Below are positions 11,389-44,010 of a stretch of 64,000 nt of DNA, piece after piece (within the stretch, counting starts at the first letter, position 1; each line of letters starts with the position of its first letter). The stretch is from Gemmatimonadota bacterium (lineage in GTDB: Bacteria; 4572-55; J002): contig RFFQ01000173.1 in the NCBI GenBank assembly GCA_003697105.1, positions 1,976-65,975 on the forward strand. Reading direction: 5' to 3'. A program made the translations under genes and the position numbers. Below the pieces are notes generated by a model. The model saw only the letters and a list, made by a program, of their open reading frames with translations. It was not told the origin of the DNA and searched no databases.

Positions 11389-11417
11389 TTGACAAAAAAT
11401 ATGCTTTCGCGTACAAT
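11389..11417 (+). promoter_or_regulatory. sigma70-type promoter: TTGACA, 17 nt spacer, TACAAT
   Basis: Exact -35 consensus at 11389-11394, 17-nt spacer, and near-consensus -10 at 11412-11417. Lies about 165 nt upstream of the ATG at 11582 (AGGAGG RBS at 11567-11572). Confidence 0.6.
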
Positions 11418-29797: not shown

Positions 29798-29914
29798 GAT
29801 ATAAACCTCCCTGTGGTGTGAATTAAAATTTATTGCGCTCATCGCAAACGGTTTCCTGCTAATTGCCTATAATTTTAGCATATTTGGAAAGTTAGTGTCA
29901 ACCGGTTAATCGCA

Positions 29915-29951
29915 CAAAAAAACTCCCTCTCATCAAATTGGGAGAGGGAGT
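29915..29951 (-). terminator. Rho-independent terminator downstream of the 729 aa lipoprotein gene
   Basis: 10-bp stem (actccctctc / gagagggagt) with a T-run on the minus strand. Confidence 0.6.
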
Positions 29952-29984: not shown

Positions 29985-32174
29985 CTAGTTACTGCGTAAT
30001 TTATCCATCACGCATTGTACAACCGGCCGGGCTTGCTCTTTCGCCCGGTTGTATTCCTCATCTGGGTCATCACCCGGATTTGCTTCCGCCATATTCGAGA
30101 GCGGAAAGTTTGTCAGAATGGTTTGTGGGACATTCAAAACGGGCTTGAAGATCGTTCCCGCCACATTGGGCTGCGCATCGGAATAGGGGCGATATTCAAA
30201 AATCACTTCTGCATTTTCGGCGGGATAAAAATCTTCACGATACGGGTACGGACGATTTTCCGGAGCATCTAGCCATTCGGCATCCACACCGTTACACGAG
30301 TTCATCCCAATAATACTCAAATTGGAGGTTTCGGAAGCTCCTTGAGGGATGGTGGACCGCCGATTCACACCAAACAAGTAAGGAAAATCACCGCGTACAA
30401 ACACTTTATCGTCATAGCCTGATTTTTGAAGCAATTTGTTGCCGGATAACCAGACCTTACCTCCAGATAGAATATAAGCAGAGAGCTCATCTTGAATATT
30501 GATAAAGGGTGTATGATTATTTGGGCGAACGCCTTCAAAATAGGATACTACAACCGCATACTGGCCAATCATTTCGATTAAACCCTCTTGATTATATGGA
30601 ACAATCGTATAATTCTCGGTATCTTCGGCGTTAAAATGCCCGGTTTCCGTAAGCACATCCAGATAAAAATCTTCCATTTCCCACGGAATCAATCCGGCAT
30701 TCGGTTTATTCAATCGATTGGGGTCATCGGTAATCAGCAATACTTCTTTTTCAAATGTGGCATGAATCACGTTGTATTCCCAAGTGGCGGGGATATAAAT
30801 CGGGTTATTCGCATCACCTTCGATCTGGTATTGTCCAATTTGATACGAATCATCCATGACTCGCACGTACAAGGTATGCATTCCCGGGCTAAATGCCTCG
30901 CCTTCTTGCAGTGCATCATACCACGTTAATGGGTTGGCGACTACCGCTCCGGTAAGGTCATAAACATCTTCTGTAACCGGTATGGGGTTGCCTTCGTCAT
31001 CAAAAAAGCGCAAATAGAACTCCGTTTCGGTTTCACTATCGACAGGGATCCACTCACTCCATGTTGTGGTATCATCAATGGACCACGAGTAATGGGTAAT
31101 ATAGCCTTCTTCACCACCGCCGAACGCCTCGGGGATAGGGTCTGTATAGCTGATACGGAAGGGACCGATACCGTTCCAATTTTCCTGTCCAACGGATGGC
31201 TGGTTGGAACTGATATGATTTGCTGGTACTAGCACGTTTTCGGCGGCACCAAATGTAATTTCCACTTGCGGGGTCAAGCTGGTTACCCGGTAATAGTAGC
31301 GGTCATAGTCCGCGGGGTCAATATTGGCAGGATTCGCCGGTCCGGCGGGCCAGGAATAAATCTCGCTCACCGCATTGCTCACATCCCAGGGCGCTAAGAT
31401 CAGATTTTCTTCATTGCCTAAATCAACAAAATCGCCCGTGGTGATAAGGGCTTGGGATAAATTAGCACCTTCCAGCAAGTCGGGGGTCGTGGGGTCATCG
31501 ATATCGGTATCAACACCGGGGGTGACCCCGGCCGTCGCCTCTGGACTGTCCAGATCAATCCGTACCGGGCGGGCGAGATAGGGATCGGTGTGATCCAAAG
31601 TAAATGCGTAGTAAGCCACCGGTTCATCCTGCTCGTCATAAACCCCGTAACCCCGCTGGCTACTATATTCCTGACCACTCAGGAATATTTCTTGATCGAC
31701 CCCGGAATACATCAGGTCCCGGCTGGCTTTGTTGGCACGGCGGACCACTTCTTCGTAGCCGAGCCAGGAGGCGCGATTATCGACCGAAATCACCTGAAAT
31801 TTGTGCATCCGGATGGCGTCTAAGGTAACATCAAATTGGGCGTCCTCTGTCCAAATCCAGCGCCCGACTTCCGTTGGAGGTACTGCCGGGTCCGCCGGGG
31901 GATTATTCAAATCTGGGAAATCGGGATTGACCGAAATCACGCGCACAAAATAACCCACGACATCCCCATCCCCATCGAATCCGGCAAAACGGAAAGTCAA
32001 TTTATAAAAATCCGCCGTACCAAATGGATTATCAATGGGTGTAGGCGGGCTGATTCTTGCCAGTGGTGGGATATTCTCGCTAATATCGCCGCTATAATCT
32101 TTATCACAACTCATTAGGGTTACCGCCAGTATCACACTTAAGAAAAGCCCCCCGAAAGGGTACAATGTTTTCAT
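29985..32174 (-). CDS. large hypothetical lipoprotein of 729 aa
   Basis: Lipobox (LMSCD) and a GAGGAGG RBS. No recognisable domain. Confidence 0.5.
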   Translation of the reverse strand: MKTLYPFGGLFLSVILAVTLMSCDKDYSGDISENIPPLARISPPTPIDNPFGTADFYKLTFRFAGFDGDGDVVGYFVRVISVNPDFPDLNNPPADPAVPPTEVGRWIWTEDAQFDVTLDAIRMHKFQVISVDNRASWLGYEEVVRRANKASRDLMYSGVDQEIFLSGQEYSSQRGYGVYDEQDEPVAYYAFTLDHTDPYLARPVRIDLDSPEATAGVTPGVDTDIDDPTTPDLLEGANLSQALITTGDFVDLGNEENLILAPWDVSNAVSEIYSWPAGPANPANIDPADYDRYYYRVTSLTPQVEITFGAAENVLVPANHISSNQPSVGQENWNGIGPFRISYTDPIPEAFGGGEEGYITHYSWSIDDTTTWSEWIPVDSETETEFYLRFFDDEGNPIPVTEDVYDLTGAVVANPLTWYDALQEGEAFSPGMHTLYVRVMDDSYQIGQYQIEGDANNPIYIPATWEYNVIHATFEKEVLLITDDPNRLNKPNAGLIPWEMEDFYLDVLTETGHFNAEDTENYTIVPYNQEGLIEMIGQYAVVVSYFEGVRPNNHTPFINIQDELSAYILSGGKVWLSGNKLLQKSGYDDKVFVRGDFPYLFGVNRRSTIPQGASETSNLSIIGMNSCNGVDAEWLDAPENRPYPYREDFYPAENAEVIFEYRPYSDAQPNVAGTIFKPVLNVPQTILTNFPLSNMAEANPGDDPDEEYNRAKEQARPVVQCVMDKLRSN

Positions 32175-32340
32175 TACACAACCTCCTCGTGTAAGTGACG
32201 TGAAGTAAAATAGTTAAGATGGCTCAATTCCTTGGGTAGGAAACTCATAATGGTTTCAATGAGATAAAAGAGGTTATCAAATTCTATAGGGATTGTCAAC
32301 ACCTTTTTTCGTTGTCACTTTCTCTTTGGGATGCTCGATT

Positions 32341-32943
32341 TCAGTTGGTTTGAGCGGCATAAAACAGGTAGATCAAGCTAGCAGTGATGCCGGTTACCAT
32401 CACCGGTTCCCAGATGGATGAGGCGGGTGGCAGTGCCGGATTTTGTTCGGTTTCCGTCGTGAGTTGTAGGAACGCTTGGGGCACCTGATCCGTAGTTTGT
32501 GCCCGGACACGACCGGAGGCAACCAATTGCTGCTGGTGGTGAAGTTGGTAGGTCAATTGGGTGATACATTCGCGTTCTACCTGAACTTTCCGCCAGATTC
32601 CGCGCCGGTACGTGCGGGGGTATCGCACCCCTAATGCATCAATTTGCAAATATAACCGGTATATCTCCGGCTGGGTCGAGTCTGGGCGAACGGTTACTAA
32701 CGAAATGGGCTTGGACTGCAACTCTTGACCCCATAGAGCGAGTAGAAAGAAGGCTTGATTTTTGTCATTTATCACTTCGGTATAAAGTTGGGATATGGGT
32801 ACACCGGCAATTTCCGCCCAGAGGTTCCGGAGAGCTTGGCGTGTGGTCTGTTCCAACTGATCCGTGTTGGAGGGATAATCCAAACCGTGGAGGGCAGAGG
32901 CTGGGATGAGCATGGCAAACAAGACTGCTATCAATCTGTGCAT
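32341..32943 (-). CDS. hypothetical secreted protein with a C-terminal transmembrane anchor
   Basis: Signal peptide from the internal Met (MHRLIAVLFAMLIPASA), placed 4 nt after the stop of the double-DnaA gene. C-terminal hydrophobic helix. Confidence 0.4.
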   Translation of the reverse strand: MHRLIAVLFAMLIPASALHGLDYPSNTDQLEQTTRQALRNLWAEIAGVPISQLYTEVINDKNQAFFLLALWGQELQSKPISLVTVRPDSTQPEIYRLYLQIDALGVRYPRTYRRGIWRKVQVERECITQLTYQLHHQQQLVASGRVRAQTTDQVPQAFLQLTTETEQNPALPPASSIWEPVMVTGITASLIYLFYAAQTN

Positions 32944-32947
32944 GGGG

Positions 32948-35041
32948 TTACAATTCCATATCCAGACGGGTGGGGGGTTTATTCCAATCGACAATCATGC
33001 GGGAGAGAAGGTCTCGGACTAACTCATTTGAGGGTTGTGGTGTCGTTGTACTGGCGGGTCGTTTTGCCGTTGAAGGTGCGGAAACGCTTGGCGTGGAATT
33101 TTCTCCTAATACGGAACGAAGTGTATCCAGCGTAATTGTGGTTTCTCCGTTGACAGAACACTGTGCTGTCAGGCGGTTTAAAATTCCTCGTAATTCCCGG
33201 ATACTATGTTGGTATTGGTGGGTAATATAGTCGAGAGCGCGGGGGTCTATTGTTAAGTTTAAGGCTTCAATATAATTTTTGACAATAGTTCGCCGTACTT
33301 CTGCTTTTGGCGATTTGAGTTCGATCACCAACCCCCCTTCAAAGCGGGAGCGAATCCGGTGCTCTACTTCTGTCAATAGATTCGGGGGACGATCACCACT
33401 AATGACGATCTGTTTGTTCACGGAATATAAGGTATTAAAGCAGTGAAAAAACTCTTCTTGGGTGCGCTCTTTGCCGCTCAAACGCTGAATATCGTCCATC
33501 AACAGCACATCAATTTCATTGTAATTCATCCGAAAGTCATCGGTGCGGCGCTCTTCAATTGCTTTGATTAAATGGCGGGCAAATTCATCCACGGTGATGT
33601 AGAGCACATTCAGATGCGCGTGATGATCGACAATGTAATTCCCGATAGCGTGGAGCAGGTGGGTTTTTCCCAAGCCGACGCCGCCATGAATATAAAGCGG
33701 GTTGTATTGCTTTGCTGGCGCCTGACTGACCGCTTTGGCAATGCTCATCAGCATTTTATTTTCATCCCCGGCGATGTAATTTTCAAACCGGAAATCCAAG
33801 ATCAAGGTTTGGCGATAGGTTTGGCGGCGTTCAATGCGGGTTTCGAGCCGTTTCAGGTCGGCGGCAATCTGGTCGATGGCTTCCGGGTTGAACAGATTTT
33901 GTTCGATTTTGCGGGCGTCTGCTTCCAGCCCTCGCACATCCAAACATGCCAATTGCTTTTGGAATTCCGCTAATCGTTTGGCATCGCGGGTGTATTCCCG
34001 AAAAACTCGTTCGATCTCTTCCACATTACCATCAATCACTTGCTGCAACCGGACGACATTAAAGCCTTTCATCTCCCACACATAGAGTTTTTGCCGGTAA
34101 AATTCGCGGAGTTCCTCTTCTTCTTGCCGTTTTGAGATGGTCTGGCTGACATCATGTTCGACTTCTTCGATAAATTGCCCGAATTCTTCCGGTAAACTAG
34201 ATTTGGCGGGGGATTTGGCGAGGGATTGAGGCTCGGGTTGGGCTACTGGTGGGGGAGTGACCTCCACCGCTGGGGAGGGTGGGGGGGTTGTGTCATAGCG
34301 TTTCTGGCGTTCGGCTAGGAGTCGTTGAACCCATTCCACGGTTACCTGCGCATCATTCAGGCTGGAAATCGCTAGGACTTGATTCAAGAAGCCCTCTAAT
34401 TCCCGGATGTTGGAGGTAATTCCCTGTGCGATCTCGTAGATCAACTCCTCCGGCAGGGTGATGTTACGCAGGGCGGCTTTATTGTTAAGGATGGCGACTC
34501 GTGTTTCAAAATCGGGTAGTTGGATATCGGCTACCAGCCCTCCTTCAAAACGGGAGCGTAACCGTTCATCCAAATCCATACTTTTCGGCGGACGATCACT
34601 GGTGAAGACGATCTGTTTTTGCAAGGTATAAAGTGTATCGAATGTATGCAGTAACTCCGTTTGGGAGCGGTCTTTATCGGCGAGGAATTGAATATCGTCG
34701 ATGAGCAGGCAATCCACATTGCGGTATTTGTTGTGGAAATCGTCAATGCTTTTGCGCCGTTCAAGGGCATCTAGCAGTTCATTCGCGAACTGTTCCGCGG
34801 TGGTATAGATGATTTGAATCTCAGGATTCGTTTGAAGGAGTTCATTACCGATGGCGCTGATGAGGTGGGTTTTGCCCAAGCCCACACCACTATAGATAAA
34901 AAGCGGATTATGCATAAAACCGGGCATATCCGCGACCCCTTTAGCGGCGGCATAAGCAAAGCGATTACTATTCCCAACAATAAAGTGATCAAAGGTAAAG
35001 TTGGGATTGAGGAAGAGTTGAAGTTGGTTACCTGCGCTCAT
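32948..35041 (-). CDS. tandem double DnaA-like AAA+ ATPase: two complete DnaA domain-III modules, with no domain I and no domain-IV DNA-binding domain
   Basis: Both halves carry Walker A (GVGLGKTHL), Walker B (LLIDDIQF / LLMDDIQR), sensor I (SDRPP / GDRPP), the box-VII arginine finger (RLRSRFEGGLV / RIRSRFEGGLV), a sensor-II-like segment, and the SNIRELEG / HSIRELRG lid. The halves are joined by a Pro-rich, coiled-coil linker of about 180 aa. A Ser/Thr-rich tail replaces the helix-turn-helix. Confidence 0.8.
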   Translation of the reverse strand: MSAGNQLQLFLNPNFTFDHFIVGNSNRFAYAAAKGVADMPGFMHNPLFIYSGVGLGKTHLISAIGNELLQTNPEIQIIYTTAEQFANELLDALERRKSIDDFHNKYRNVDCLLIDDIQFLADKDRSQTELLHTFDTLYTLQKQIVFTSDRPPKSMDLDERLRSRFEGGLVADIQLPDFETRVAILNNKAALRNITLPEELIYEIAQGITSNIRELEGFLNQVLAISSLNDAQVTVEWVQRLLAERQKRYDTTPPPSPAVEVTPPPVAQPEPQSLAKSPAKSSLPEEFGQFIEEVEHDVSQTISKRQEEEELREFYRQKLYVWEMKGFNVVRLQQVIDGNVEEIERVFREYTRDAKRLAEFQKQLACLDVRGLEADARKIEQNLFNPEAIDQIAADLKRLETRIERRQTYRQTLILDFRFENYIAGDENKMLMSIAKAVSQAPAKQYNPLYIHGGVGLGKTHLLHAIGNYIVDHHAHLNVLYITVDEFARHLIKAIEERRTDDFRMNYNEIDVLLMDDIQRLSGKERTQEEFFHCFNTLYSVNKQIVISGDRPPNLLTEVEHRIRSRFEGGLVIELKSPKAEVRRTIVKNYIEALNLTIDPRALDYITHQYQHSIRELRGILNRLTAQCSVNGETTITLDTLRSVLGENSTPSVSAPSTAKRPASTTTPQPSNELVRDLLSRMIVDWNKPPTRLDMEL

Positions 35042-35065
35042 AGATTTGGTGCTGTCAAGATAAGG

Positions 35066-37582
35066 TTAGGACACATCAGAAATTTCATCGGGTTGATGCG
35101 GTAGGGAAACATGCCCACCTCTGGAAAAGATACGCTCCCATTCCAACGCCACCTCCAGACTTTGCCGGGCACTTTCGCGTAGATTTTCATCTTCCGTGGA
35201 GGAGATAATCTGCTCCCACTGTTTGATGGCGCCTTTGTAAATCCGGCGGTAATTACACAGACCTAACTGATAATGGGCGTAGTGATAGGTTGGTTTGATG
35301 CGGATGACCGTCCGGTAGGTGTGTGCGGCTTCGTTATACTTTTGCTGTTGAAAATAGATGTCCCCTAGGGTTGTATAGACATAGGCATCATTTGCGTTGG
35401 TTTTGAGGGCTTCCTGACAGATATTTTCCGCGGTTTGCAGATCATCTTTACGAACATAAATTTTAGCTAAGCGGCGGAACGCCAATGAATTTTCCGGGTT
35501 GAGTTCGATAGCTTGCCGGTAGTAGTGGATTGCGTCATCGGGGCGTTCGGCATATTCAGAAAGAATGCCACAAATCAGTTGGGCTTCAAAATTCGTAGGT
35601 TCTAGTTCGATCACCCGTTTGTACGCCTCCAGTGCTTTATCGTACAGCCCTTTTTTCTTATACACATTCCCTTTGGAGCGGTATATTTCGCTGCGGTCGG
35701 GTGCTAACTGGTTTGCTTTGCCCAAGTACAACAAAGCTTCGTCATACATGCCTTTGCGGGAGTATGCCCGGCCAAGCAGATATTGCGCCTCCGTATGTTG
35801 GGGGTCGAGTTCCACGGCAACCCGGAGTTTGATCAGGGCTTCGTCCAGAGCACCAGCGTCGAAGTGCTCTTTTGCTTCTTGATAATACCGGTGAACTTCG
35901 GTGCGTTTAATGCGTTCGGCGCGATCAATACCTTGTTCGTGTTCTCCGGCTAAACGTTCTTGCAGCCGTTTGGCGGCGTCTTCGGGGCGGGCAACCGGAA
36001 CGGTCAGGACTTCAAATTTGGGAGTGGGGAAGTCGATCATCAATTTGAAAAAGTACCCCGCATATTCGCTGCGTAAACTCCGTGCATCCTCAAATTGAAC
36101 AATAGCTTCTTCGTACCGTCCCTGATGGACAAGTGCAAAGCCATAATTAAATTTTGCTTCGGCACTTTGCGCATTTACATGAACGGCATCACTCAAAAAC
36201 GGGATTGCCTGATCGTAATTGCCCAATTCCAAATGCACAATTCCCAAATTTGCCAACACCCGATAATTACTGGGTTCCCGCTGGCGGCACTCCTCCAAAA
36301 TTTTCAGTGCTTCTTGATATTCATTTTGCCAACGATACACTAAAGCAAGATTGATTTGAGGCTCGATGTCTTTCGCGTCAAGCTGAATCGCTTGGCGAAA
36401 TGCCTCGATTGCTTGGTCGTACTGACCTTGATTGACCAGTGCGACGCCCCGATTATTGTAACTGGGGGCATACTGTGGATTGACCTTCAATGATTTATCG
36501 TACCATACCAGTGCTTTTTGATATTCACCGGAGAGGTGATGCCCGACGCCGATATCGTTAAACATTCGGGCTGAATAAGGCTCTACCACTAGTGCTTTTT
36601 GGTATTCACGCACCGCATCGTTGGCGTTACCTTTCAGCAACAGAATTTCTGCCACATTGCGGTATATCAATGCCGCATCCGGATCGATACCCAACGCCCG
36701 TTGAAATTCACCCAGCGCTTCATCAAAAAAGCCTTTATTGCGATAGGCGATCCCCATGTGATAATGATTCATAAAATTCTGGGCGGGGGATTGAGTGTGT
36801 GTTGTCCGCACGGAATCGGTATCGCTCAACTCGACATCACTATCGTCGATTTCAAGGTTTGTTTCCGCTTTGGCGTAATTGGGGTCTAGTTTGATTGCCG
36901 TGTTGTACGCTTCCTGTGCTTCGGTGAACATGCCTTTATCGCCGTAAACAAAACTCAGGTGGAAGTAGGCATCGGCAAGTTCGGGATCGATTTCGATCAC
37001 CTTTTGGAATTGAGCGATGGCTTCTTCATCCATGCCCATGTTGTAATAGGCTTGTCCCAGTTTATCATGGATGATGGCGATACCGGGTTTAAGTTCCGCC
37101 GCAAATAGATATTCTTGAATTGCACGTTCACAATCTCCAATGCCCATCAAGCCGTTACCGAGGTGATAATGGGCAAGGTAATTCATCCGGTCCATCTCAA
37201 CCACGGTGGTATATTGTTCGATGGCATCTTGAAAATTACCGGCGGTTTCATAAACGTTGCCCAACTTGTAGTATGCCTGCACATCTTTCGGGTTCATCTG
37301 AATCCGCTGTTTGTATTTATTGATGAGTTCATCGTATTTGCCGGTTTTCCGGTACACGGCTTGTAAATTGCGGCGGGCAAGTGAAAAACGGGGGTCTAGG
37401 GAGAGGGCTTTGCGAAATTGTTGAATCGCCTCTTCATAAAAGCCTTTTTGGTAAAAGACGACTCCCAAATTGTTATGGGCGCCTGCATCTTTCGGATCCA
37501 GGCGATCCGAATAGCTTTGCAGGACTTTTATATCTCCATTCCGTGTCGTCTGGTGTTGGGTATCGGAAGCCATAGTTTCCAT
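35066..37582 (-). CDS. large TPR-repeat protein
   Basis: More than 20 TPR units (recurring YY.LG ... A...Y..A pattern). Start placed at METMASD, just after the gatA stop. The ORF-track start at 37762 overlaps gatA. Confidence 0.75.
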   Translation of the reverse strand: METMASDTQHQTTRNGDIKVLQSYSDRLDPKDAGAHNNLGVVFYQKGFYEEAIQQFRKALSLDPRFSLARRNLQAVYRKTGKYDELINKYKQRIQMNPKDVQAYYKLGNVYETAGNFQDAIEQYTTVVEMDRMNYLAHYHLGNGLMGIGDCERAIQEYLFAAELKPGIAIIHDKLGQAYYNMGMDEEAIAQFQKVIEIDPELADAYFHLSFVYGDKGMFTEAQEAYNTAIKLDPNYAKAETNLEIDDSDVELSDTDSVRTTHTQSPAQNFMNHYHMGIAYRNKGFFDEALGEFQRALGIDPDAALIYRNVAEILLLKGNANDAVREYQKALVVEPYSARMFNDIGVGHHLSGEYQKALVWYDKSLKVNPQYAPSYNNRGVALVNQGQYDQAIEAFRQAIQLDAKDIEPQINLALVYRWQNEYQEALKILEECRQREPSNYRVLANLGIVHLELGNYDQAIPFLSDAVHVNAQSAEAKFNYGFALVHQGRYEEAIVQFEDARSLRSEYAGYFFKLMIDFPTPKFEVLTVPVARPEDAAKRLQERLAGEHEQGIDRAERIKRTEVHRYYQEAKEHFDAGALDEALIKLRVAVELDPQHTEAQYLLGRAYSRKGMYDEALLYLGKANQLAPDRSEIYRSKGNVYKKKGLYDKALEAYKRVIELEPTNFEAQLICGILSEYAERPDDAIHYYRQAIELNPENSLAFRRLAKIYVRKDDLQTAENICQEALKTNANDAYVYTTLGDIYFQQQKYNEAAHTYRTVIRIKPTYHYAHYQLGLCNYRRIYKGAIKQWEQIISSTEDENLRESARQSLEVALEWERIFSRGGHVSLPHQPDEISDVS

Positions 37583-37601
37583 CTCAAATGCCTTTTCCCG
37601 G

Positions 37602-39074
37602 TTAGGAGGCTGAATCAAGTCGCGCCTGCTCAAAGGCGTATGCGGTTTGTAGAAGTTGCTCTTCCGCATCGGGTTTCGCGATGAATTGTATGCCGGCAGG
37701 CAACTGCCCGGCAGGAATATCGCCCGGCACGGATATCGCCGGTAAGCCCGCCAGACTCGCAAGTACCGTGAATTGATCGGATTGGTACATCCGAAGCGGG
37801 TCTGTTAAGTGTTCGCCCCTACGAAATGCCGGTGTGGGTGTGACCGGTGATACGACCAATTCCACTTGTTGAAACGCTTGCTCAAAATCGCGGGCAATTT
37901 GGGTTCGGATTTGCTGTGCTCTTTGGTAGTACGCGGCGTAATGCTCCTGTTGCAAGACGTATGTGCCCAGCAAAATGCGCCGCTTGACTTCTGGACCAAA
38001 CCCTTCTGTCCGGCTGTGACGGTATAGGCTATGCAAATCATTTGCCCGTTTTGAACGATGCCCGTACCGGACGCCATCATAACGCGCTAAATTTGCCGAA
38101 GCCTCCGCATTGGCAATGATATAGTACGTCGCTAGGGCGTAGGGTACATGGGGTAAGGAAATCTCCCGAAGCTCTACGCCACAGGCTTCTAATCGACGTA
38201 AACCGGCATCAAACGCATACTGTACCACCGGCTCCAGAGTTACGTCCTGAAATTCTTTCACGATGCCAATCGGGAGACCGTTCAAGGTCTTATGGTTTTT
38301 CAGGGTTGAGGCATCATAAGGGGGTGCCTTCCGGCTTGTAGAATCCTTCGGGTCTGCGCCAGCAAGTACCTGAAATAGAAGCGCGCTATCTTCCACCGTA
38401 CGGGTCAGACATCCGATCTGATCAAATGAGGAAGCAAAGGCGACCAATCCAAAGCGGGAGATTCGCCCGTAGGTGGGTTTGAGTCCCACAACGCCGCAAA
38501 ATGCGGCCGGTTGCCGCACAGAACCGCCGGTATCCGACCCTAACGCAACGGTTGCCGTATGGACTGCCACTGCCGCGGCAGACCCACCACTGGAGCCGCC
38601 GGCTACCCGCGCGGGATCGTGGGGGTGGCGGGTGGCTCCAAACACGGAAGTTTCGGTTGAAGACCCCATCGCAAATTCATCCAGATTGGTCTTCCCGATA
38701 ATGATCGCGCCGTGTTCCCGTAAGCACTGGACAACGGTCGCATCATAGGGGGCAATGAACTCCTGCAACATTTTGGAACCACACGTGACCGGCACGCCTT
38801 TCACACAAATGTTGTCCTTAATGGCGACCGGAATGCCTAATAATGGTGAGGTGTCATCACCTTGATGTAAACGCCGGTCTGCTTGGCGGGCTTGTGCTAA
38901 TGCCCTCTCCGCCAGCACGGTGATATAGGCATGGATTGCCGGTTCCGTACGTTCAATGCGGGTCAGGACTTCTCGTGTTATTTCTTCCGAAGTGATACAT
39001 TTTTTTCGCAATAAGCCATACAATTCTGCGGCAGATTTATCGCTACATTCCAGAGCCATACCAACACCGGTCAA
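37602..39074 (-). CDS. gatA: aspartyl/glutamyl-tRNA amidotransferase subunit A
   Basis: Amidase signature GGSSGGSAAAVA and the Ser-cisSer-Lys triad context. Start is TTG at 39074 or ATG at 39059. Confidence 0.9.
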   Translation of the reverse strand: MTGVGMALECSDKSAAELYGLLRKKCITSEEITREVLTRIERTEPAIHAYITVLAERALAQARQADRRLHQGDDTSPLLGIPVAIKDNICVKGVPVTCGSKMLQEFIAPYDATVVQCLREHGAIIIGKTNLDEFAMGSSTETSVFGATRHPHDPARVAGGSSGGSAAAVAVHTATVALGSDTGGSVRQPAAFCGVVGLKPTYGRISRFGLVAFASSFDQIGCLTRTVEDSALLFQVLAGADPKDSTSRKAPPYDASTLKNHKTLNGLPIGIVKEFQDVTLEPVVQYAFDAGLRRLEACGVELREISLPHVPYALATYYIIANAEASANLARYDGVRYGHRSKRANDLHSLYRHSRTEGFGPEVKRRILLGTYVLQQEHYAAYYQRAQQIRTQIARDFEQAFQQVELVVSPVTPTPAFRRGEHLTDPLRMYQSDQFTVLASLAGLPAISVPGDIPAGQLPAGIQFIAKPDAEEQLLQTAYAFEQARLDSAS

Positions 39075-39355
39075 CGGAAAAGAGAGGGTACCCGAAAATG
39101 TTCCTGTGCCAGGTCTGGCGCCAGTTCTTCCAGAACAGTGAATGGCAATCCGATCTGGACTTGATCCGTGCGCAAAACATTTGTTGTCACTCCGGGTTGA
39201 ACCATCGGTGATATACCGGTGGTGTCCACTTCCGTGACCCGGGCGAATGCGGTGAGGATACGTTCCAGGTCGGTGTGGAATTGTGCCATTTCTGAGGGTG
39301 TAAGCTCCAGTTGGGCACGTTTTGTCAGATGGGTAAATTCGGCGTGTGAGATCAT
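39071..39355 (-). CDS. gatC: aspartyl/glutamyl-tRNA amidotransferase subunit C
   Basis: About 95 aa (MISHAEFTHLTKRAQLELTPSEM ...). ATGA overlap with the tsaD stop. Confidence 0.8.
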   Translation of the reverse strand: MISHAEFTHLTKRAQLELTPSEMAQFHTDLERILTAFARVTEVDTTGISPMVQPGVTTNVLRTDQVQIGLPFTVLEELAPDLAQEHFRVPSLFR

Positions 39356-40371
39356 TTGTTTATCGCGGTTAGTGGCTGTCGTGCAAAGACGCCTAGTTGC
39401 CAAGAATCCGATTTTCCGGTACGCAGGTAAAAGTCGCCTACGGCGGCAATCATTGCCCCATTATCGGTGCACAAAATCGGTGAGGGATACAGACAGCGCA
39501 AGCCATGTTCGGCGGCGGCGCTTTCGAGTGCGGCGCGTAACCGGCGGTTACAGGCGACTCCCCCCGCCATGGTGACGGTGGGATAGCCCGCATCTAAGCA
39601 GGCGGCTATTGTCCGCTCCACAAGGCTTTTTACCACCGCTTCTTGAAAGCTGGCAAGAATGTCGTTCCGGTGCGCCTGAATAAATTCGACGGTTTGTTTT
39701 TGCAGGTAATAGAGTACGGCCGTTTTTAACCCGCTGAAACTAAAATCATACGGATGGTTACGGATGATGGGGGGCGGAAATTCCACAAAATTCGGATCTC
39801 CTTCTGCCGCTAATTTATCGATAATGGGACCACCCGGATAGCCTAATTCCAGCCATTTCGCAATTTTGTCAAATGCCTCACCGGCGGCATCATCACGTGT
39901 TTGGCCCCGCAATTGATATTTGCCGCGTTCGGGCATGTCCACGAGCAAGGTATGCCCGCCAGACACGACCAAGCTGACCAATGGGGGTTCTAATTCCGCG
40001 CTGCCAAGGAAATTAGAGAATAAATGCCCTTCTAAATGATTTACGCCTACCAACGGTTTTTGTGTTGTGTAGGCGAGTCCTTTAGCGACCGATACGCCCA
40101 CCAGTAACGATCCAACTAAACCGGGCGCATTGGTGACCGCGATACCATCAATGTCGGTCAATGCGATATTTGCTTGGGCGAGTGCCGTTTCAATAATGGG
40201 GATAATCTTCTGGACGTGGGCACGAGAGGCGAGTTCCGGTACAACACCACCGTAGGGGATATGGACGGCTTGTGAGGCAATGATATTGGAGAGAATGTGT
40301 GTGCCGTCCCGTACAACCGCCGCCGATGTTTCGTCGCAGGAGGATTCAATCCCCAGTACCAGCATTCCCAA
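39352..40371 (-). CDS. tsaD: tRNA N6-adenosine threonylcarbamoyltransferase
   Basis: LVLGIESSCDETSAAVV, HLEGH, and the Kae1/TsaD fold. Confidence 0.9.
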   Translation of the reverse strand: MGMLVLGIESSCDETSAAVVRDGTHILSNIIASQAVHIPYGGVVPELASRAHVQKIIPIIETALAQANIALTDIDGIAVTNAPGLVGSLLVGVSVAKGLAYTTQKPLVGVNHLEGHLFSNFLGSAELEPPLVSLVVSGGHTLLVDMPERGKYQLRGQTRDDAAGEAFDKIAKWLELGYPGGPIIDKLAAEGDPNFVEFPPPIIRNHPYDFSFSGLKTAVLYYLQKQTVEFIQAHRNDILASFQEAVVKSLVERTIAACLDAGYPTVTMAGGVACNRRLRAALESAAAEHGLRCLYPSPILCTDNGAMIAAVGDFYLRTGKSDSWQLGVFARQPLTAINK

Positions 40372-40374
40372 CCT

Positions 40375-40803
40375 CTATTTCCGTTTTCGGGAGGTACTTT
40401 GTCCCCCGCTGGATGGCGTGTTTCCCGCGCTACTTCCTCCCCCGGAGGTGCCCTTGGGTTGATCACTTAAATAGGCGGGAACTTCTCGTTCTTTCATGTT
40501 CACTTTACCCCGAATAATGGCTTCCGGATCGACTTCTAAGCCGCCGGTGGGGCATTCAATGTCCCCTTCTACCCGACCACTGGCATGAATATGGACTTTT
40601 TCTTTGGCAAAAATATTACCAACCACTTTGCCTTCGACCGAAACAATGGTGCCTTCTACTTCGGCGGTCACCCGTCCATTTCTGCCGATGTGAAATTTGC
40701 CGTTGACCTTAATTTTACCTTCAAATTCACCTTCAATGGTGATGTCCTCATCGCTGGTCATCTCCCCGGTAACTTTAATTCCTTTGCTGATTAATGATTG
40801 CAC
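40375..40803 (-). CDS. bactofilin (polymer-forming cytoskeletal protein)
   Basis: Bactofilin / DUF583 beta-helical repeats (IEGEFEGKIKVNGKFHIGRNGRV ...) and a Gly/Ser-rich tail. Confidence 0.8.
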   Translation of the reverse strand: MQSLISKGIKVTGEMTSDEDITIEGEFEGKIKVNGKFHIGRNGRVTAEVEGTIVSVEGKVVGNIFAKEKVHIHASGRVEGDIECPTGGLEVDPEAIIRGKVNMKEREVPAYLSDQPKGTSGGGSSAGNTPSSGGQSTSRKRK

Positions 40804-40845
40804 AATTCCTCCACATTGTTATCAACTTACATATTCTAAGGTTTA

Positions 40846-41277
40846 CTATTTGGATTCCGCTGATGGTGATGGTTTAGGGGACCGTTTTCGATCCGGCATT
40901 TCACAACTTCCCTTAAAAATAGCCCCATCTTCCACCACGAGACGCGGATTATCAATATTACCCGTCACGTGGGCCGTAGGGCGGAGATGTAGTTTATCTT
41001 GTGTGACAATGCTTCCATTCACCCGTCCGGAGACGATCATATTGCGAGCCCGGATGGATTCGCTCTCAAGGTTACCGGACTCCTCAATGGTGAGGTCTTC
41101 ATTTAAGCTGATTTTACCATTGACTTTACCCATAATTCGTACCGAATCCTGACCGGAAATATCGCCTTTAATCACCACCCGCGAGCCGATGTAGGTATCT
41201 TGTTTGCGGTCTAACTTCGGGATATTTGCCTGTTGTAAACGCTGTTCTTCTTTGTTTTTGTTACCAAACCAACCCAT
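40846..41277 (-). CDS. bactofilin, second paralogue
   Basis: Bactofilin repeats (IKGDISGQDSVRIMGKVNGKISLNEDLTIEESG ...). AAAGGAG RBS. Confidence 0.8.
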   Translation of the reverse strand: MGWFGNKNKEEQRLQQANIPKLDRKQDTYIGSRVVIKGDISGQDSVRIMGKVNGKISLNEDLTIEESGNLESESIRARNMIVSGRVNGSIVTQDKLHLRPTAHVTGNIDNPRLVVEDGAIFKGSCEMPDRKRSPKPSPSAESK

Positions 41278-41326
41278 ATATTCTCCTTTTTATCTTCCAA
41301 AATTATTAAGTAGAGATTCCGCGCTC

Positions 41327-41355
41327 AATATAGGTCTTTTACCAATCAGCGTCAA
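41327..41355 (-). promoter_or_regulatory. sigma70-type promoter for the bactofilin-tsaD-gatCA-TPR-dnaA2 operon
   Basis: Minus-strand TTGACG (41355-41350), 17 nt spacer, TATATT (41332-41327), about 45 nt upstream of the bactofilin ATG. Confidence 0.5.
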
Positions 41356-41492: not shown

Positions 41493-42689
41493 ATGCAAAA
41501 GTGGTTACTTATCGGGTTTATCTTGCTGGGCATGACCTCCATCGCCGTCCCGAAGATCAAACCGAGTGAACGACATGTCACGGCAGTGGCGCAACCGGGG
41601 GATGGCATTTATGCGTTACTGGCACGCTACCATCTACCTCAAAATCGTTACTATGTGGATCAGTTCCGGGCGTTGAATGCCTCGAATCTTGCAGGTAATG
41701 ACCATCTGGTTGCCGGGCGAACCTACGAAATACCGATCAAAATATATACTTATAACGGGATCAGCATCCGTTCCACCGTGGGGATTTCGGATCGATCCCA
41801 TGCGGAACGAATTCAAGCGTATAATCGCACGATGCTAAACGCCGGTTTTCAGGATCAGGACTATCTGATTAGTAAGGTGTTGTGGGTACCTTTCCACGAA
41901 TTGGAATCGAACCCAGCCGCTTATGAAACTCGCCGTAAAACGTCGGGACGTTCGAGACCATTCTCGATTTTTGGTCCCCGATATGCGGAGGTGACTTTTA
42001 CGGACTCAGACCTGCGTGGTTCGGTCTTTTATATTGTTGCTGGGCACGGTGGTCCCGACCCCGGCGCGACCGGTAAACGGGGAAATCACACGCTTTGTGA
42101 AGATGAGTACGCCTATGACATCGCTCTGCGGCTGACCCGCAATTTGCTGGCACATGGTGCCATCGCTTACGTGATTACCCGTGACCCTAATGACGGTATC
42201 CGCGATGAAGCGTACCTAAAATGTGATACGGATGAGTATTGTTGGAAGGCTCAGGCGATCCCGCGAGGACAGTTATCCCGCTTGCACCAGCGAGCAGAAG
42301 CAATCAACCGGCTTTACTGGCGTCACAAAGGTGCCAAACAGCGGGTAGTTGTACTCCACGTGGACTCGCGCAGCCGTGGCAACCGGGTGGATATGTTTTT
42401 TTACTACCATTCGACCAGCCATTCCGGTAAACGCTTGGCAGAAACCCTCCACCAGACGATCCGGCGGAAATATCAGATTCACCAACCGGCGCGAGGTTAT
42501 CACGGGTTTGTGCGTGCCAGAGATGAGTTATACATGCTCCGCAAACCCCTTCCGACAACGGTTTATGTGGAATTAGGGAACATCAAAAATAGTTTTGACC
42601 AACTGCGGCTGATCAAAGTGGATAATCGGCAAGCGGTTGCCAACTGGCTAACAGAGGGTTTAATCAAAGACATCAACGCCACCAAATGA
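41493..42689 (+). CDS. N-acetylmuramoyl-L-alanine amidase (Amidase_3, AmiC-like) with an N-terminal LysM-like domain
   Basis: Signal peptide and LysM-like segment (GDGIYALLARYHL). Amidase_3 core (FYIVAGHGGPDPGATG ... EDEYAYDIALRL). Confidence 0.85.
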   Translation: MQKWLLIGFILLGMTSIAVPKIKPSERHVTAVAQPGDGIYALLARYHLPQNRYYVDQFRALNASNLAGNDHLVAGRTYEIPIKIYTYNGISIRSTVGISDRSHAERIQAYNRTMLNAGFQDQDYLISKVLWVPFHELESNPAAYETRRKTSGRSRPFSIFGPRYAEVTFTDSDLRGSVFYIVAGHGGPDPGATGKRGNHTLCEDEYAYDIALRLTRNLLAHGAIAYVITRDPNDGIRDEAYLKCDTDEYCWKAQAIPRGQLSRLHQRAEAINRLYWRHKGAKQRVVVLHVDSRSRGNRVDMFFYYHSTSHSGKRLAETLHQTIRRKYQIHQPARGYHGFVRARDELYMLRKPLPTTVYVELGNIKNSFDQLRLIKVDNRQAVANWLTEGLIKDINATK

Positions 42690-42702: not shown

Positions 42703-44001
42703 ATGAAACGTTCCCTGATGGTACAACCGGCCGCGGCTCTACACGGGGACATCACGGTGCCGGGCGATAAGTCAATCTCACACCGGGCGGTGCTCTTGGG
42801 AGCACTGGGTGACGGGCAATTTACCGTGAAAAATTGGCTTTCTGCCGGCGATACCGAAGCTAGCTTACAAGCCGTTCAGGATTTGGGCATCCCCGTGGAA
42901 CGACCATCACCCACCACCTTGATCCTCACGGGGGGAATGTTTCAACCGCCGGATCACCCGCTGAACTTGAGGAATACCGGTACCGGCTTGCGTTTGCTCG
43001 CCGGTATTCTTGCCGCCCAACCGTTTGAAAGCATTTTGGATGGCAGTTCGCAACTTCGCCAACGCCCAATGGGACGGATCATTGACCCGCTCCGGCGGAT
43101 GGGCGCGGAGATTTCCGGCATGGACGGGTATGCCCCGCTCCACATTAAACCGGCGGCATTACGAGGCATCGATTATACGCTACCGGTGGCAAGTGCACAG
43201 GTCAAAAGCGCGATTTTGCTTGCCGGACTTTTTGCCCAAGGGGAGACCATCCTCCGGCAAAATTACCCCTCCCGCGATCACACCGAACGGATGCTACAAG
43301 CGATGGGGGCAAATCTGACCCAACAAAACGGTATCATCCACCTTCAACCGGGGAATCCCTTGAAAAATCAGGACATCTCCATCCCTGGCGATTTATCCGC
43401 CGCGGCGTTTCCGCTGGCGGCGGCATTGATTGTACCGGACAGCGACATCACTCTCCACGGGGTGAATCTCAACCCTACACGTACCGGCTTGCTTGACGTG
43501 CTCACCCGCATGGGAGCCAACCTGACGATCACGAAAACCGGGACCCAAGCTGGTGAACCGGTGGGCCGGATTCACGCCCAAACCAGCGAACTGCACGGGA
43601 TCGAAATCGGGGGCGCAATGATCCCGCGCTTGATCGATGAAATTCCAATTTTGATGGTGATCGCGCTCCATGCGGAAGGGCAAACCCTTGTGCGGGATGC
43701 TGCCGAATTACGGGTTAAAGAGAGCGACCGCCTGTCCGTGATGACCGCGCAGTTACATCGGCTCGGTGCTTCGATCACCGAAACTCCCGAGGGTTTCCGG
43801 CTGGTGGGTAAGCAACACTTGACCGGTGCCGTCGTCGATAGTCACGAGGACCACCGGGTTGCCATGAGCCTGGCTATTGCCGGGCTAGTTGCCACTGGGG
43901 AAACGGTTGTTCGGAATAGCCCCTGTATTGGCGATTCCTTTCCCGATTTTGTTTCCCAGATGAAGTCTCTCGGGGCGCCTATCCGTACCCACACTTGGTA
44001 G
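42703..44001 (+). CDS. aroA: 3-phosphoshikimate 1-carboxyvinyltransferase (EPSP synthase)
   Basis: VPGDKSISHRAVLLGALGDG, LRNTGTG, and RPMGR motifs. Confidence 0.9.
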   Translation: MKRSLMVQPAAALHGDITVPGDKSISHRAVLLGALGDGQFTVKNWLSAGDTEASLQAVQDLGIPVERPSPTTLILTGGMFQPPDHPLNLRNTGTGLRLLAGILAAQPFESILDGSSQLRQRPMGRIIDPLRRMGAEISGMDGYAPLHIKPAALRGIDYTLPVASAQVKSAILLAGLFAQGETILRQNYPSRDHTERMLQAMGANLTQQNGIIHLQPGNPLKNQDISIPGDLSAAAFPLAAALIVPDSDITLHGVNLNPTRTGLLDVLTRMGANLTITKTGTQAGEPVGRIHAQTSELHGIEIGGAMIPRLIDEIPILMVIALHAEGQTLVRDAAELRVKESDRLSVMTAQLHRLGASITETPEGFRLVGKQHLTGAVVDSHEDHRVAMSLAIAGLVATGETVVRNSPCIGDSFPDFVSQMKSLGAPIRTHTW

Positions 44002-44010
44002 TCTGGAGAG

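Follow-up and report, generated by a model that had tools for sequence, protein, structure and literature searches.

We know of no DnaA-type ATPase described as part of the Myxococcus polarity system. Gene neighbourhoods that bring together PATAN-domain, Roadblock and MglA proteins were reportedly noted by Makarova et al. in 2006. Neighbourhoods of PATAN (DUF4388/PatA_N), Roadblock and MglA are also covered by Wuichet and Sogaard-Andersen 2014 (PMC4316618), who report MglA Group 1 in Gemmatimonadetes; the text of that paper makes no mention of a DnaA-like ATPase, its single match to "AAA" being the ABC-transporter domain name AAA_21, and contains no occurrence of chemotaxis. For Myxococcus, two papers present SgmX, a large TPR protein, as an effector of MglA (PMC7519303, PMC7668184), and polarity there also involves a bactofilin that works together with two small GTPases, SofG and MglA (Bulyha et al. 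2013, cited in PMC4316618).

The window analysed here, a stretch of 64,000 nucleotides from the metagenome-assembled genome of an uncultured Gemmatimonadota bacterium, contains a minus-strand string of genes in the order bacA, bacB, tsaD, gatC, gatA, a gene for a giant TPR protein, a gene for a tandem DnaA-domain-III protein (dblDnaA) and a gene for a small membrane protein. Our preferred reading, to which we assign a probability of roughly 60%, is a probable single, mosaic sigma-70 unit whose three modules each have their own evolutionary history and which includes a TPR-dblDnaA polarity or envelope scaffold. The first module would be bacA-bacB, the second tsaD-gatC-gatA, and the third the giant TPR protein, dblDnaA and the small membrane protein, with conserved linkage apparently limited to the third.

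Judging from sequence, the eight genes from bacA to the small membrane protein gene are probably transcribed as one unit from a sigma-70-type promoter, TTGACG-17-TATATT (41327-41355, minus strand), which agrees with the consensus at 10 of 12 positions and is situated in the 215-nt divergent intergenic region, 50 nt 5' of the bacA ATG. Sites with at least 10 of 12 matches are not enriched over the window as a whole (18, versus 13.9 +/- 4.0 in shuffled sequence). Because 11 of the 18 fall within the ORF-free 8.8% of the window, and 7 are found 13-165 nt 5' of a gene start on their own strand, the consensus is predictive in this genome. The consensus scan found no further minus-strand site of this strength from 41327 to 29901. 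The genes are closely spaced: 42 nt separate bacA from bacB; 3 or 9 nt separate bacB from tsaD, according to whether tsaD starts with TTG at 40371 or ATG at 40365; tsaD and gatC share an ATGA overlap; gatA follows gatC by 11 nt with its ATG start, or overlaps it by 4 nt with an alternative TTG start at 39074; and the remaining gaps are 19 nt (gatA-TPR), 24 nt (TPR-dblDnaA) and 4 nt (dblDnaA-small protein gene). Three terminator-like matches occur on the minus strand within the unit, all weak and all inside coding sequence. Such matches are at chance density in the region (18 versus 15.3 +/- 3.9), and no folding was found in the 42-nt bacA-bacB spacer.

These results bear out much of a preliminary description of the locus, namely its promoter, its gaps of -4 to 42 nt, its lack of internal terminators (none in the unit is credible), and its gene families (two bactofilins, TsaD, GatC, GatA, TPR and a protein with two Bac_DnaA stretches, all recovered by Pfam and NCBIfam). 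The count of nine genes in 32341-41355 did not hold. We count eight, as do independent gene calls in two further assemblies from this organism, and the ninth same-strand ORF lies outside that range. It follows a terminator-free, unstructured spacer of 166 nt (32175-32340, fold z-score 0.56) and a GAGGAGG Shine-Dalgarno, and encodes a lipoprotein-like protein of 729 aa (29985-32174, minus strand), for which no family was found and whose N-terminus, MKTLYPFGGLFLSVILAVTLMSC, is a signal peptide with a lipobox-like Cys at its end. This ORF is a possible ninth member of the unit, which would reach nine genes if transcription reads through as far as 29916-29950. There lies the first strong intrinsic terminator 3' of the promoter (12-bp stem, U7, -18.5 kcal/mol, z = -4.53), followed by the next minus-strand promoter, TTGACA-18-TAAAAT (29901-29872).

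The spacer may hold a weak internal promoter, TTGACA (32299-32294)-17-TGaTAACCT (32279-32271), with a perfect -35 and a poor extended -10 that leave it below the scanner threshold. That perfect TTGACA would suit an arrangement we consider unlikely, in which the bactofilins, tsaD-gatCA, TPR-dblDnaA-small protein gene and lipoprotein gene are separate units, read from internal promoters that the scan missed, and tight spacing is genome compaction only. The modules do differ in evolutionary history and in G+C content (about 0.45-0.49 for the bactofilins, 0.52-0.55 for tsaD-gatCA, 0.47-0.50 for TPR/dblDnaA). Minus-strand sites with 9 of 12 matches are present inside the unit at 38342, 36479, 34509, 34488, 33786, 33780 and 33285, but sites of this grade are at chance density (22 versus 16.8 +/- 3.8), while the strong sites of the window are intergenic and none is internal to the unit. 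Gaps of -4 to 24 nt, moreover, are too small for regulatory regions, and no terminator precedes 29950.

The bacA gene (40846-41277, strong Shine-Dalgarno AAGGAG) encodes a 143-aa bactofilin (Pfam Bactofilin, 1.7e-26) whose N-terminal tail, MGWFGNKNK, bears a loose resemblance to the membrane-targeting sequence of bactofilins (consensus MFSKKKK, PMC12448750). Its paralog bacB (40375-40803, GGAGG Shine-Dalgarno, GTG start; 3.9e-23) encodes 142 aa with 27% identity to BacA, lacks the N-terminal tail, and ends in a basic tail rich in Gly, Ser and Pro. The two are a divergent bactofilin pair, probably forming a membrane-associated co-polymer. They lie head-to-head with a plus-strand gene (41493-42689) whose product, a cell-wall amidase, carries a signal or anchor sequence at its N-terminus. 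Amidase_3 (3.4e-17) is the sole Pfam family in this protein, no AMIN domain was found by Pfam or NCBIfam, and the top NCBIfam match, CwlD, is far under its cut-off, so the earlier term "AmiC-type" lacks support. Downstream of the bactofilins, tsaD (39352-40371; tRNA t6A37 threonylcarbamoyltransferase; Pfam TsaD, 1.1e-95), gatC (39071-39355; Pfam GatC; start codon overlapping the stop of tsaD) and gatA (37602-39059; Pfam Amidase, 1.8e-156) all exceed NCBIfam equivalog cut-offs (TIGR03723, 426 bits against 296; TIGR00135, 64.6 against 47.1; TIGR00132, 599 against 481) and constitute a module of ordinary translation housekeeping genes.

The giant TPR protein (35066-37582, 838 aa, Pfam TPR families) is cytoplasmic, and a PDB sequence search returns matches to generic TPR proteins only. 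It is colinear with the TPR protein of one other dblDnaA locus, L002 (29.5% identity over 810 aa, E = 8e-106), shows 50% identity over 811 aa to that of another, L081, and is the ortholog of the approximately 900-aa TPR protein in the Che/MglA cluster of Gemmatimonadales. The last gene (32341-32943) encodes 200 aa without a Pfam or NCBIfam match. It had been called a small secreted protein, and a signal peptide is indeed present at the N-terminus, but given the hydrophobic anchor at the C-terminus it is better called a membrane protein. The C-terminal half is 31% identical to a 203-aa protein of L081, with the common tail WxEPV...LIYxFYAA, which marks that protein as its ortholog; beyond L081, no homolog was found among 5.8 billion proteins.

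We compared the neighbourhoods of 94 other dblDnaA loci, mostly from soil Gemmatimonadales and not phylogenetically independent. Where 6.6 kb or more of the sequence upstream of dblDnaA is available (37 loci), an ortholog of the giant TPR gene is always present there; two loci with 5.5-5.9 kb of such sequence (L082, L161) show none. The TPR gene directly adjoins dblDnaA in the two closest relatives, L081 (51%) and L083 (63%). Immediately 5' of dblDnaA is mglA in 77 of 81 loci, and immediately 3' is a PATAN/TPR gene in at least 55 of 59. The order in Gemmatimonadales, backed by Pfam, is CheW-CheY-CheA-CheC-TPR-PATAN-Roadblock x3-MglA-dblDnaA-PATAN-CheR-CheD-CheB, and the GTPase of this cluster matches M. 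xanthus MglA over its full length (1e-74). The pairing of TPR with dblDnaA is conserved across Gemmatimonadota, and most genomes have the two flanked by chemosensory genes and by a genuine polarity set of mglA, mglB (Roadblock) and PATAN genes. In the 64-kb window, genes of the mglA, Roadblock, PATAN and che families were looked for and not found; the pair there may work without mgl/che genes or rely on copies encoded outside the window. It would represent the reduced core of a phylum-wide supercluster comprising a Che system, PATAN, three Roadblock/MglB-like proteins and MglA.

The other neighbours in the window tell a different story. Bactofilin, tsaD and gatC genes were found in none of the 94 other dblDnaA loci (for bactofilins, within 10 kb of dblDnaA), and gatA is linked to dblDnaA in just one, L081. 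There the order is gatA-TPR-dblDnaA-PAS-small, and the gene directly 5' of gatA, instead of encoding GatC, TsaD or a bactofilin, encodes a PATAN-domain response regulator. The two nearest retrievable bactofilin relatives (49% and 43% identity) have neighbourhoods unrelated to that of the window. Because of the 0 of 94 and these unrelated contexts, the link between the bactofilins and the pair is specific to the lineage of the window and may be incidental. Possibly it is conserved inside that lineage, which is almost unsampled, the region upstream of gatA being visible only in L081, for 1.4 kb. The proposal of a cell-cycle or polarity module made of bactofilins, TPR and double-DnaA protein, with translation genes as riders, therefore survives in part. 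TPR and dblDnaA occur together in 37 of 37 loci, in a polarity or signalling context, and the bactofilins are never linked to them. A polarity or signalling role is supported for the TPR-dblDnaA pair only, since that pair only is syntenic with the MglA/Che cluster, and by association only; any polarity function would be assigned through guilt by association.

It is improbable, on these counts, that the bactofilins, TPR protein, dblDnaA and small membrane protein are one polarity or cell-cycle machine, in which the housekeeping genes are passengers and a bactofilin polymer is the landmark that recruits a TPR/dblDnaA complex. Apparent co-transcription from one promoter, the tie between TPR-dblDnaA and MglA modules in other genomes, the bactofilin-SofG-MglA precedent from Myxococcus and the head-to-head amidase gene would all fit such a machine, but bactofilins near dblDnaA in 0 of 94 other loci, their unrelated settings in nearest relatives, the PATAN response regulator 5' of gatA in L081, and the three housekeeping genes standing between bactofilins and pair argue against it.

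The dblDnaA protein (32948-35041, minus strand, 697 aa, two Pfam Bac_DnaA stretches) consists of a DnaA domain III module (aa ~8-250), a disordered linker, a helical middle domain (aa ~290-420), a second DnaA domain III module (aa ~412-650), another disordered linker, and a conserved C-terminal Trp-motif helix. No DnaA domain I or IV was found (no match to Pfam DnaA_N or DnaA_C). Each half covers the entire Bac_DnaA profile, with 45-54% identity to canonical DnaA domain III. PDB sequence matches include 8bv3 (E = 1e-74), and when an AF2 model (pLDDT 86, pTM 0.76) is compared by Foldseek with B. subtilis DnaA III, the target-normalised TM-score is 0.94. Among 59 sequences, the two halves show little or no variation in Walker A, Walker B, the box VII arginines or sensor II. 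N-halves group with one another and so do C-halves, a pattern consistent with one ancient duplication. The middle domain (33782-34174), without a Pfam match, is one copy of a helical repeat unit of about 110 aa that phmmer finds in 209 representatives, some of them long proteins carrying 5-13 copies in tandem. The earlier term "Hda-like" is imprecise: the halves are nearer to genuine DnaA III (52% identity to that of B. subtilis), the match to Hda (PDB 5x06) is 35 bits only, and the N-terminal QLQLF, which resembles a clamp-binding motif, is missing in the 63% and 51% relatives, so that a conserved clamp-binding motif was not found across these three. The score to TIGR03420, 193.9 bits against a cut-off of 194.8, is a sum over two domains. 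The motifs KDRSQ and KERTQ lie where, by E. coli numbering, the DnaA single-strand-binding K/R motif would be placed. That both halves have stayed so close to DnaA in sequence would also suit a function exercised on DNA or on DnaA.

Under the mosaic reading, dblDnaA would be an ATP switch derived from DnaA, having lost the parts for binding duplex DNA (domain IV) and for recruiting the helicase (domain I). Its two AAA+ modules both retain Walker A, Walker B, arginine finger and sensor II, and when bound to ATP the protein may assemble head-to-tail in the manner of DnaA domain III. The TPR protein may bind the conserved Trp-motif peptide behind the disordered linker, and together the two would make a nucleotide-gated scaffold for cell-polarity or envelope-site signalling. 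Placement of the pair 3' of gatA, and hence of the bactofilins, would give growth-coupled co-expression in this lineage; co-expression by itself is no demonstration that bactofilins and pair function jointly. That dblDnaA is instead a replication regulator, Hda-like in effect but with no need of the sliding clamp, which co-assembles with or caps DnaA-ATP filaments or stimulates hydrolysis via its arginine fingers, its control coupled to growth by placement after tsaD-gatCA, is quite improbable, for although its halves are about as near to DnaA III as to distant orthologs of each other and the TM-score, invariant box VII arginines, sensor II and presumed K/R motif positions suit that role, the clamp-binding motif is not conserved, domains I and IV are missing, some 80 loci have the gene in a fixed place between mglA and PATAN/cheR and not close to dnaA, dnaN or an origin, and the extra helical repeat domain and C-terminal peptide motif look like protein-interaction parts.

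Compared with DnaA, dblDnaA shares the Walker A, Walker B, box VII and sensor II elements of domain III, but has neither domain I nor the DNA-binding domain IV, joins two domain III modules through an unrelated helical domain, and is set among polarity and chemosensory genes, with no dnaN or origin. Hda/HdaA, which act in regulatory inactivation of DnaA, are likewise DnaA-related AAA+ proteins that keep the arginine finger without domains I and IV; dblDnaA differs in being tandem rather than single, in its weak similarity, and in its unconserved N-terminal clamp-binding motif. Like the BacA-PbpC system of C. crescentus and BacP-SofG of M. xanthus, the locus has bactofilins, here as two adjacent paralogs, with a targeting-like N-terminal tail on BacA and a cell-wall enzyme gene next door; linkage of bactofilins to tsaD-gatCA and TPR/dblDnaA is seen only in this organism. 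The window lacks the mglA, mglB and che genes over 64 kb, whereas the Gemmatimonadales cluster resembles the MglA/MglB, Frz and SgmX system of M. xanthus in its genuine MglA, Roadblock/LC7 (MglB-type) proteins and complete Che set. The TPR protein of the window is like SgmX in being of the large TPR type, a similarity that is by itself no proof of homology. Finally, the dblDnaA loci show the same gene association as the known PATAN/Roadblock/MglA neighbourhoods, to which we add dblDnaA itself, as the gene that comes straight after mglA in 77 of 81 loci.

The minus-strand gene string at 41355-32341 is a mosaic. Its only part with conserved linkage is a pair of adjacent genes, the ORF for a giant TPR protein of 838 aa (37582-35066, minus strand) and the ORF for dblDnaA, a 697-aa protein with two Bac_DnaA domains in tandem (35041-32948, minus strand), joined in the window's own lineage by the ORF for a 200-aa small membrane protein (32943-32341, minus strand). 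The comparison used 94 dblDnaA loci from other organisms (8 taken from reference genomes, 6 obtained by exact look-up, 80 taken from metagenomes), mostly soil Gemmatimonadales and not independent samples. ORFs at each locus were screened with the window's proteins and with those of L002, a representative Gemmatimonadales locus. The scan of reference genomes was dominated by canonical DnaA and gave 8 useful loci, while the metagenome scan returned relatives at 33-37% identity only; the window's own lineage is represented by two relatives, L083 (63% identity) and L081 (51% identity), both on short contigs. In all 37 loci with sufficient flank, an ortholog of the giant TPR protein is encoded upstream of dblDnaA. 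The alignments are colinear, with 27-30% identity over about 800 aa and E-values down to 1e-106, and score far above the generic TPR matches in the same loci (50-67 bits). PDB and NCBIfam searches gave the giant protein only generic TPR matches, uninformative as to its specific identity.

Outside the window's lineage the pair keeps consistent company. A small GTPase gene, mglA, lies immediately 5' of dblDnaA in 77 of 81 loci, and a PATAN/TPR gene lies immediately 3' in at least 55 of 59. Pfam assignments give the order CheW-CheY-CheA-CheC-giant TPR-PATAN/TPR-TPR/Roadblock-Roadblock-Roadblock-MglA-dblDnaA-PATANx2/TPR-CheR-CheD-CheB(-CheW-CheW), a supercluster of about 16 kb that is near-invariant in Gemmatimonadales (L002:1229-15971, L004, L086-L088, L093, L095-L099 and about 80 more loci) and is often flanked by rluD at one side and by rsmH/ftsI of the cell-division (dcw) cluster at the other. 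No MCP gene was seen inside it. The GTPase is a genuine MglA, matching Myxococcus xanthus MglA structures over its full length (1e-74). The genes that keep company with the pair in these loci encode the parts of a polarity switch of the MglA/MglB type controlled by a chemosensory system.

The preliminary description had asked whether bactofilin, TPR and double-DnaA genes co-occur in related genomes, and the answer is divided. Linkage of TPR and dblDnaA is conserved across the phylum, and the order gatA, TPR, dblDnaA, small membrane protein recurs in L081, with insertions; the bactofilins, tsaD and gatC are not conserved, being present in none of the 94 dblDnaA loci, and gatA is present in one, L081 itself. 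There the order is PATAN response regulator, gatA, TPR, dblDnaA, PAS protein, small-membrane-protein ortholog, another TPR protein. The L081 gatA has no gatC ahead of it, and the gene directly upstream (L081:61-1380) encodes a PatA-like protein with receiver-PATAN-receiver architecture. In L083 the TPR gene adjoins dblDnaA. A homolog search with the window's small protein returned only that protein. Two further loci depart from the common order. L082 reads PATAN, unknown gene, dblDnaA. L161 (L161:45-9482) reads ileS, dksA-like gene, lspA, rluD, dblDnaA, PATAN/TPR, lacks the Che-to-mglA segment, retains the rluD that normally stands ahead of cheW, and seems to have arisen from the supercluster by deletion. 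The 64-kb window contains no che, mglA, Roadblock or PATAN genes according to BLAST with Gemmatimonadales queries and Pfam on ORFs of at least 150 aa, Roadblock-sized ORFs being covered by BLAST only.

Pfam finds two complete Bac_DnaA ATPase domains in dblDnaA and neither domain I (DnaA_N, PF11638) nor domain IV (DnaA_C, PF08299), whereas canonical DnaA proteins have both PF08299 and PF11638. The match to TIGR00362 is limited to profile positions 103-341 of 437, and the N-half matches Bacillus subtilis DnaA domain III at 1e-74. An AlphaFold2 model based on 59 family members is confident (pLDDT 86, pTM 0.76). In it a disordered linker (residues 254-296) and then a helical domain (about 294-411) separate two AAA+ modules, and after the second module a disordered stretch (652-668) leads to a C-terminal helix. 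Each AAA+ module superposes on DnaA domain III (Foldseek), with a target-normalised TM-score of 0.94 and 52% identity to 8bv3. Both modules look catalytically competent because the ATPase motifs are kept in both halves, invariant or nearly so across the 59 sequences: Walker A G54-H59, Walker B D115/D116, box VII R160/R164 and sensor II R213 in the N-half, and G456-H461, D516/D517, R562, R566 and R623 in the C-half. Both halves are 45-54% identical to canonical DnaA domain III, and family-wide the N-halves are closest to N-halves and the C-halves to C-halves, a pattern that fits one ancient duplication of a DnaA module.

The label "Hda-like" for this protein is not supported. Hda, which promotes hydrolysis of the ATP on DnaA, has a single domain III, whereas dblDnaA is a tandem, and the match to Hda in PDB reaches only 35 bits. 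Hda carries an N-terminal beta-clamp-binding motif of the QL[SD]LF or QLSLPL type, the clamp consensus being QLxLF. One candidate for such a motif, NQLQLF at residues 5-10 (35011-35028, minus strand), was rejected, since even the relative at 63% identity has NSTLIL in its place and other relatives lack the motif; the resemblance is probably a chance match. A Trp-containing motif at the C-terminus, with consensus EK.VWDWPD...R..EELR, is conserved. The helical middle domain (residues 290-420; 33782-34174, minus strand) has no Pfam model and is a single copy of a unit of about 110 aa. The same unit, with the signature W..EGY.V..LE ... LD..GFE.E...I...L.D, occurs in 5-13 tandem copies in long uncharacterised proteins, some of which (P0146, P0147, P0155) also carry DUF835 at the N-terminus or zinc ribbons at the C-terminus. 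The repeat family seems not to have been described before.

The biology of DnaA domain III and the anatomy of the protein suggest that dblDnaA would self-assemble under the control of ATP, as a switch or scaffold with the TPR protein for its adaptor. TPR domains commonly bind peptides like the conserved C-terminal element that dblDnaA carries behind a disordered linker. We regard such a switch or scaffold with a TPR adaptor as the most likely arrangement. A second explanation, in which the target of dblDnaA is DnaA itself or single-stranded DNA, is kept alive by how strongly the protein has retained its DnaA-like sequence; weighing against it, the clamp motif and domains I and IV are missing and the position of the gene is fixed beside mglA. 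A broader history, covering the switch with its adaptor and the DnaA alternative alike, can be offered tentatively, with a probability of roughly 0.3: early in the history of Gemmatimonadota an initiator ATPase module was duplicated and drawn into an MglA/MglB-PATAN-Che polarity circuit, either to act as a second switch, driven by ATP and partnered by a giant TPR adaptor, or to couple polarity physically to DnaA and chromosome replication. The window would then hold a minimal version (TPR, dblDnaA, membrane protein) rewired to bactofilins.

The bactofilins themselves, bacA (41277-40846) and bacB (40803-40375, GTG start assumed), head the string on the minus strand and were identified as ORFs with Pfam matches. 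They cover 97-98 of the 98 profile positions of Bactofilin PF04519 (DUF583), with 92.7 and 82 bits against a cut-off of 27.9. The BacA N-terminus, MGWFGNKNK, has an aromatic residue followed by lysines and bears only a loose likeness to the bactofilin membrane-targeting consensus MFSKKKK (PMC12448750); BacB has no N-terminal tail, provided that its GTG start is right. A homolog search gave a best identity of 49%, and the closest placeable relatives (49% and 43% identity) have unrelated genes around them. The cell-cycle or cell-polarity module proposed in the preliminary description survives in part: a polarity reading for the TPR-dblDnaA pair stands by association, while co-function with bactofilins is unsupported in the 94 loci. 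Myxococcus offers a precedent for a bactofilin link, in that BacP acts there with the GTPases SofG and MglA (Bulyha et al. 2013, cited in PMC4316618). Here the link is without comparative support, is seen so far in one organism only, and may reflect only the place, downstream of gatA, at which the pair came to lie. A more conventional partner for the bactofilins may be the amidase of the divergent gene, an Amidase_3 enzyme (PF01520, 63.4 bits, residues 181-391). Pfam finds no AMIN domain in it, and the name "AmiC-type" is therefore unsuitable. The sole AMIN domain found in the window is C-terminal, on an OmpA-family protein (61460-63319, plus strand). Right behind the amidase gene are aroA and a chorismate-binding enzyme (42703-45300, plus strand), one of two blocks among which aromatic amino-acid and menaquinone-related genes are split; the other (5111-9648, plus strand) holds a MenC-like gene, aroE, aroC, aroK and aroB.

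Between bacB and the TPR gene, also on the minus strand, are tsaD (40371 or 40365 to 39352), gatC (39355-39071) and gatA (39059-37602), all ORFs with Pfam and NCBIfam matches. Each scores over its full length above the cut-off of its NCBIfam equivalog model: TsaD 426.5 against 296.1 (TIGR03723), GatC 64.6 against 47.1 (TIGR00135), and GatA 599.5 against 481.1 (TIGR00132). The families originally named were all borne out by Pfam and NCBIfam, and the original gap lengths agree with those recomputed: in gene order 42, 3 (or 9), -4 (an ATGA overlap), 11 (or -4), 19, 24 and 4 nt. The gene number does not agree, as eight genes rather than nine were found in 32341-41355, eight also by independent gene calls on the same locus as recovered in JGI metagenome 3300014822 and Logan run SRR7905024. 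A ninth gene there was rejected, the sole additional ORF being a 50-aa out-of-frame overlap (35038-35190).

A consensus scan locates the promoter TTGACG-17-TATATT at 41355-41327 (minus strand), where it had been placed before. The window, which comes from the chromosome of an uncultured Gemmatimonadota bacterium and has about 49% G+C, contains 18 sites that agree with the consensus at 10 or more of its 12 positions, where dinucleotide-preserving shuffles give 13.9 +/- 4.0. This count is uninformative by itself, but the location of the sites is informative. Eleven of the 18 fall in the 8.8% of the window not covered by ORFs, and seven, the 41355-41327 site among them, lie 13-165 nt 5' of a same-strand start codon. 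Another site, matching 11 of 12 positions (11389-11417), stands ahead of a plus-strand gene (11582-15925) for a secreted 1447-aa protein with ASH/HYDIN-type Ig domains, three Laminin_G_3 domains and a C-terminal dockerin-like domain. The window scan found no minus-strand site of at least 10/12 from 41327 to 29901. Minus-strand terminator-like matches within the unit are weak and all lie in coding sequence, and the density of such matches in the region is that of chance, as the earlier claim of no internal terminators had it; the bacA-bacB spacer is unstructured by a fold test. The string thus has the marks of an operon in its sequence: one strand, short gaps or overlaps, a single upstream promoter and no terminator inside.

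The small membrane protein gene is followed by an unstructured spacer of 166 nt (z = 0.56) and a minus-strand ORF (32174-29985) for a 729-aa lipoprotein-like protein with no Pfam or NCBIfam match. A nine-gene unit with a 3' boundary other than the one first proposed is plausible because this spacer is unstructured and the first strong terminator comes only after the 729-aa ORF, which may nonetheless have a weak promoter of its own in the spacer (perfect TTGACA, poor extended -10). That terminator (29950-29916, minus strand) has a 12-bp stem and U7 (-18.5 kcal/mol, z = -4.5); 15 nt past it lies a minus-strand promoter, TTGACA-18-TAAAAT (29901-29872), which matches 11 of 12 positions and has TG ahead of the -10. 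This textbook succession of terminator and promoter (29872-29950) forms a clean unit boundary and indicates that E. coli-like signals are in use in the host genome. Next on the minus strand is a 578-aa ORF (28106-29842), like the neighbouring 729-aa ORF without a Pfam or NCBIfam match, and 3' of both are genes for a Big_5 protein and an MltF-like SLT/SBP_bac_3 lytic transglycosylase. Genes for envelope proteins thus seem to form a block just past the unit.

The practical lesson for the operon is to treat no more than the TPR-dblDnaA pair as a functional unit. MglA/MglB polarity modules and DnaA have both been heavily studied. Should dblDnaA truly act together with MglA, polarity control in bacteria would gain a new component class, and the protein would also exemplify an initiator ATPase functioning away from the origin; if it acts on DnaA instead, it would be a polarity-linked replication regulator. 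Cultivable Gemmatimonas species carry the full cluster. Earlier surveys have recorded that Gemmatimonadetes have MglA Group 1 and that MglA/MglB and PATAN genes are occasionally neighbours; the text of the one by Wuichet and Sogaard-Andersen (PMC4316618) does not mention a DnaA-like ATPase. Keyword searches, which covered few subscription-journal papers, so that an earlier description is possible, found no account of tandem DnaA proteins or of a DnaA-type ATPase tied to MglA, polarity or chemosensory clusters. Set against the MglA/MglB polarity module, the relatives encode mglA (in those 77 of 81 loci) and a Roadblock/LC7 GAP alongside dblDnaA, whereas the window does not; the window carries, in a reduced and rearranged form, an MglA-, PATAN- and Che-associated module with a tandem DnaA-type ATPase that is undescribed in the literature searched.
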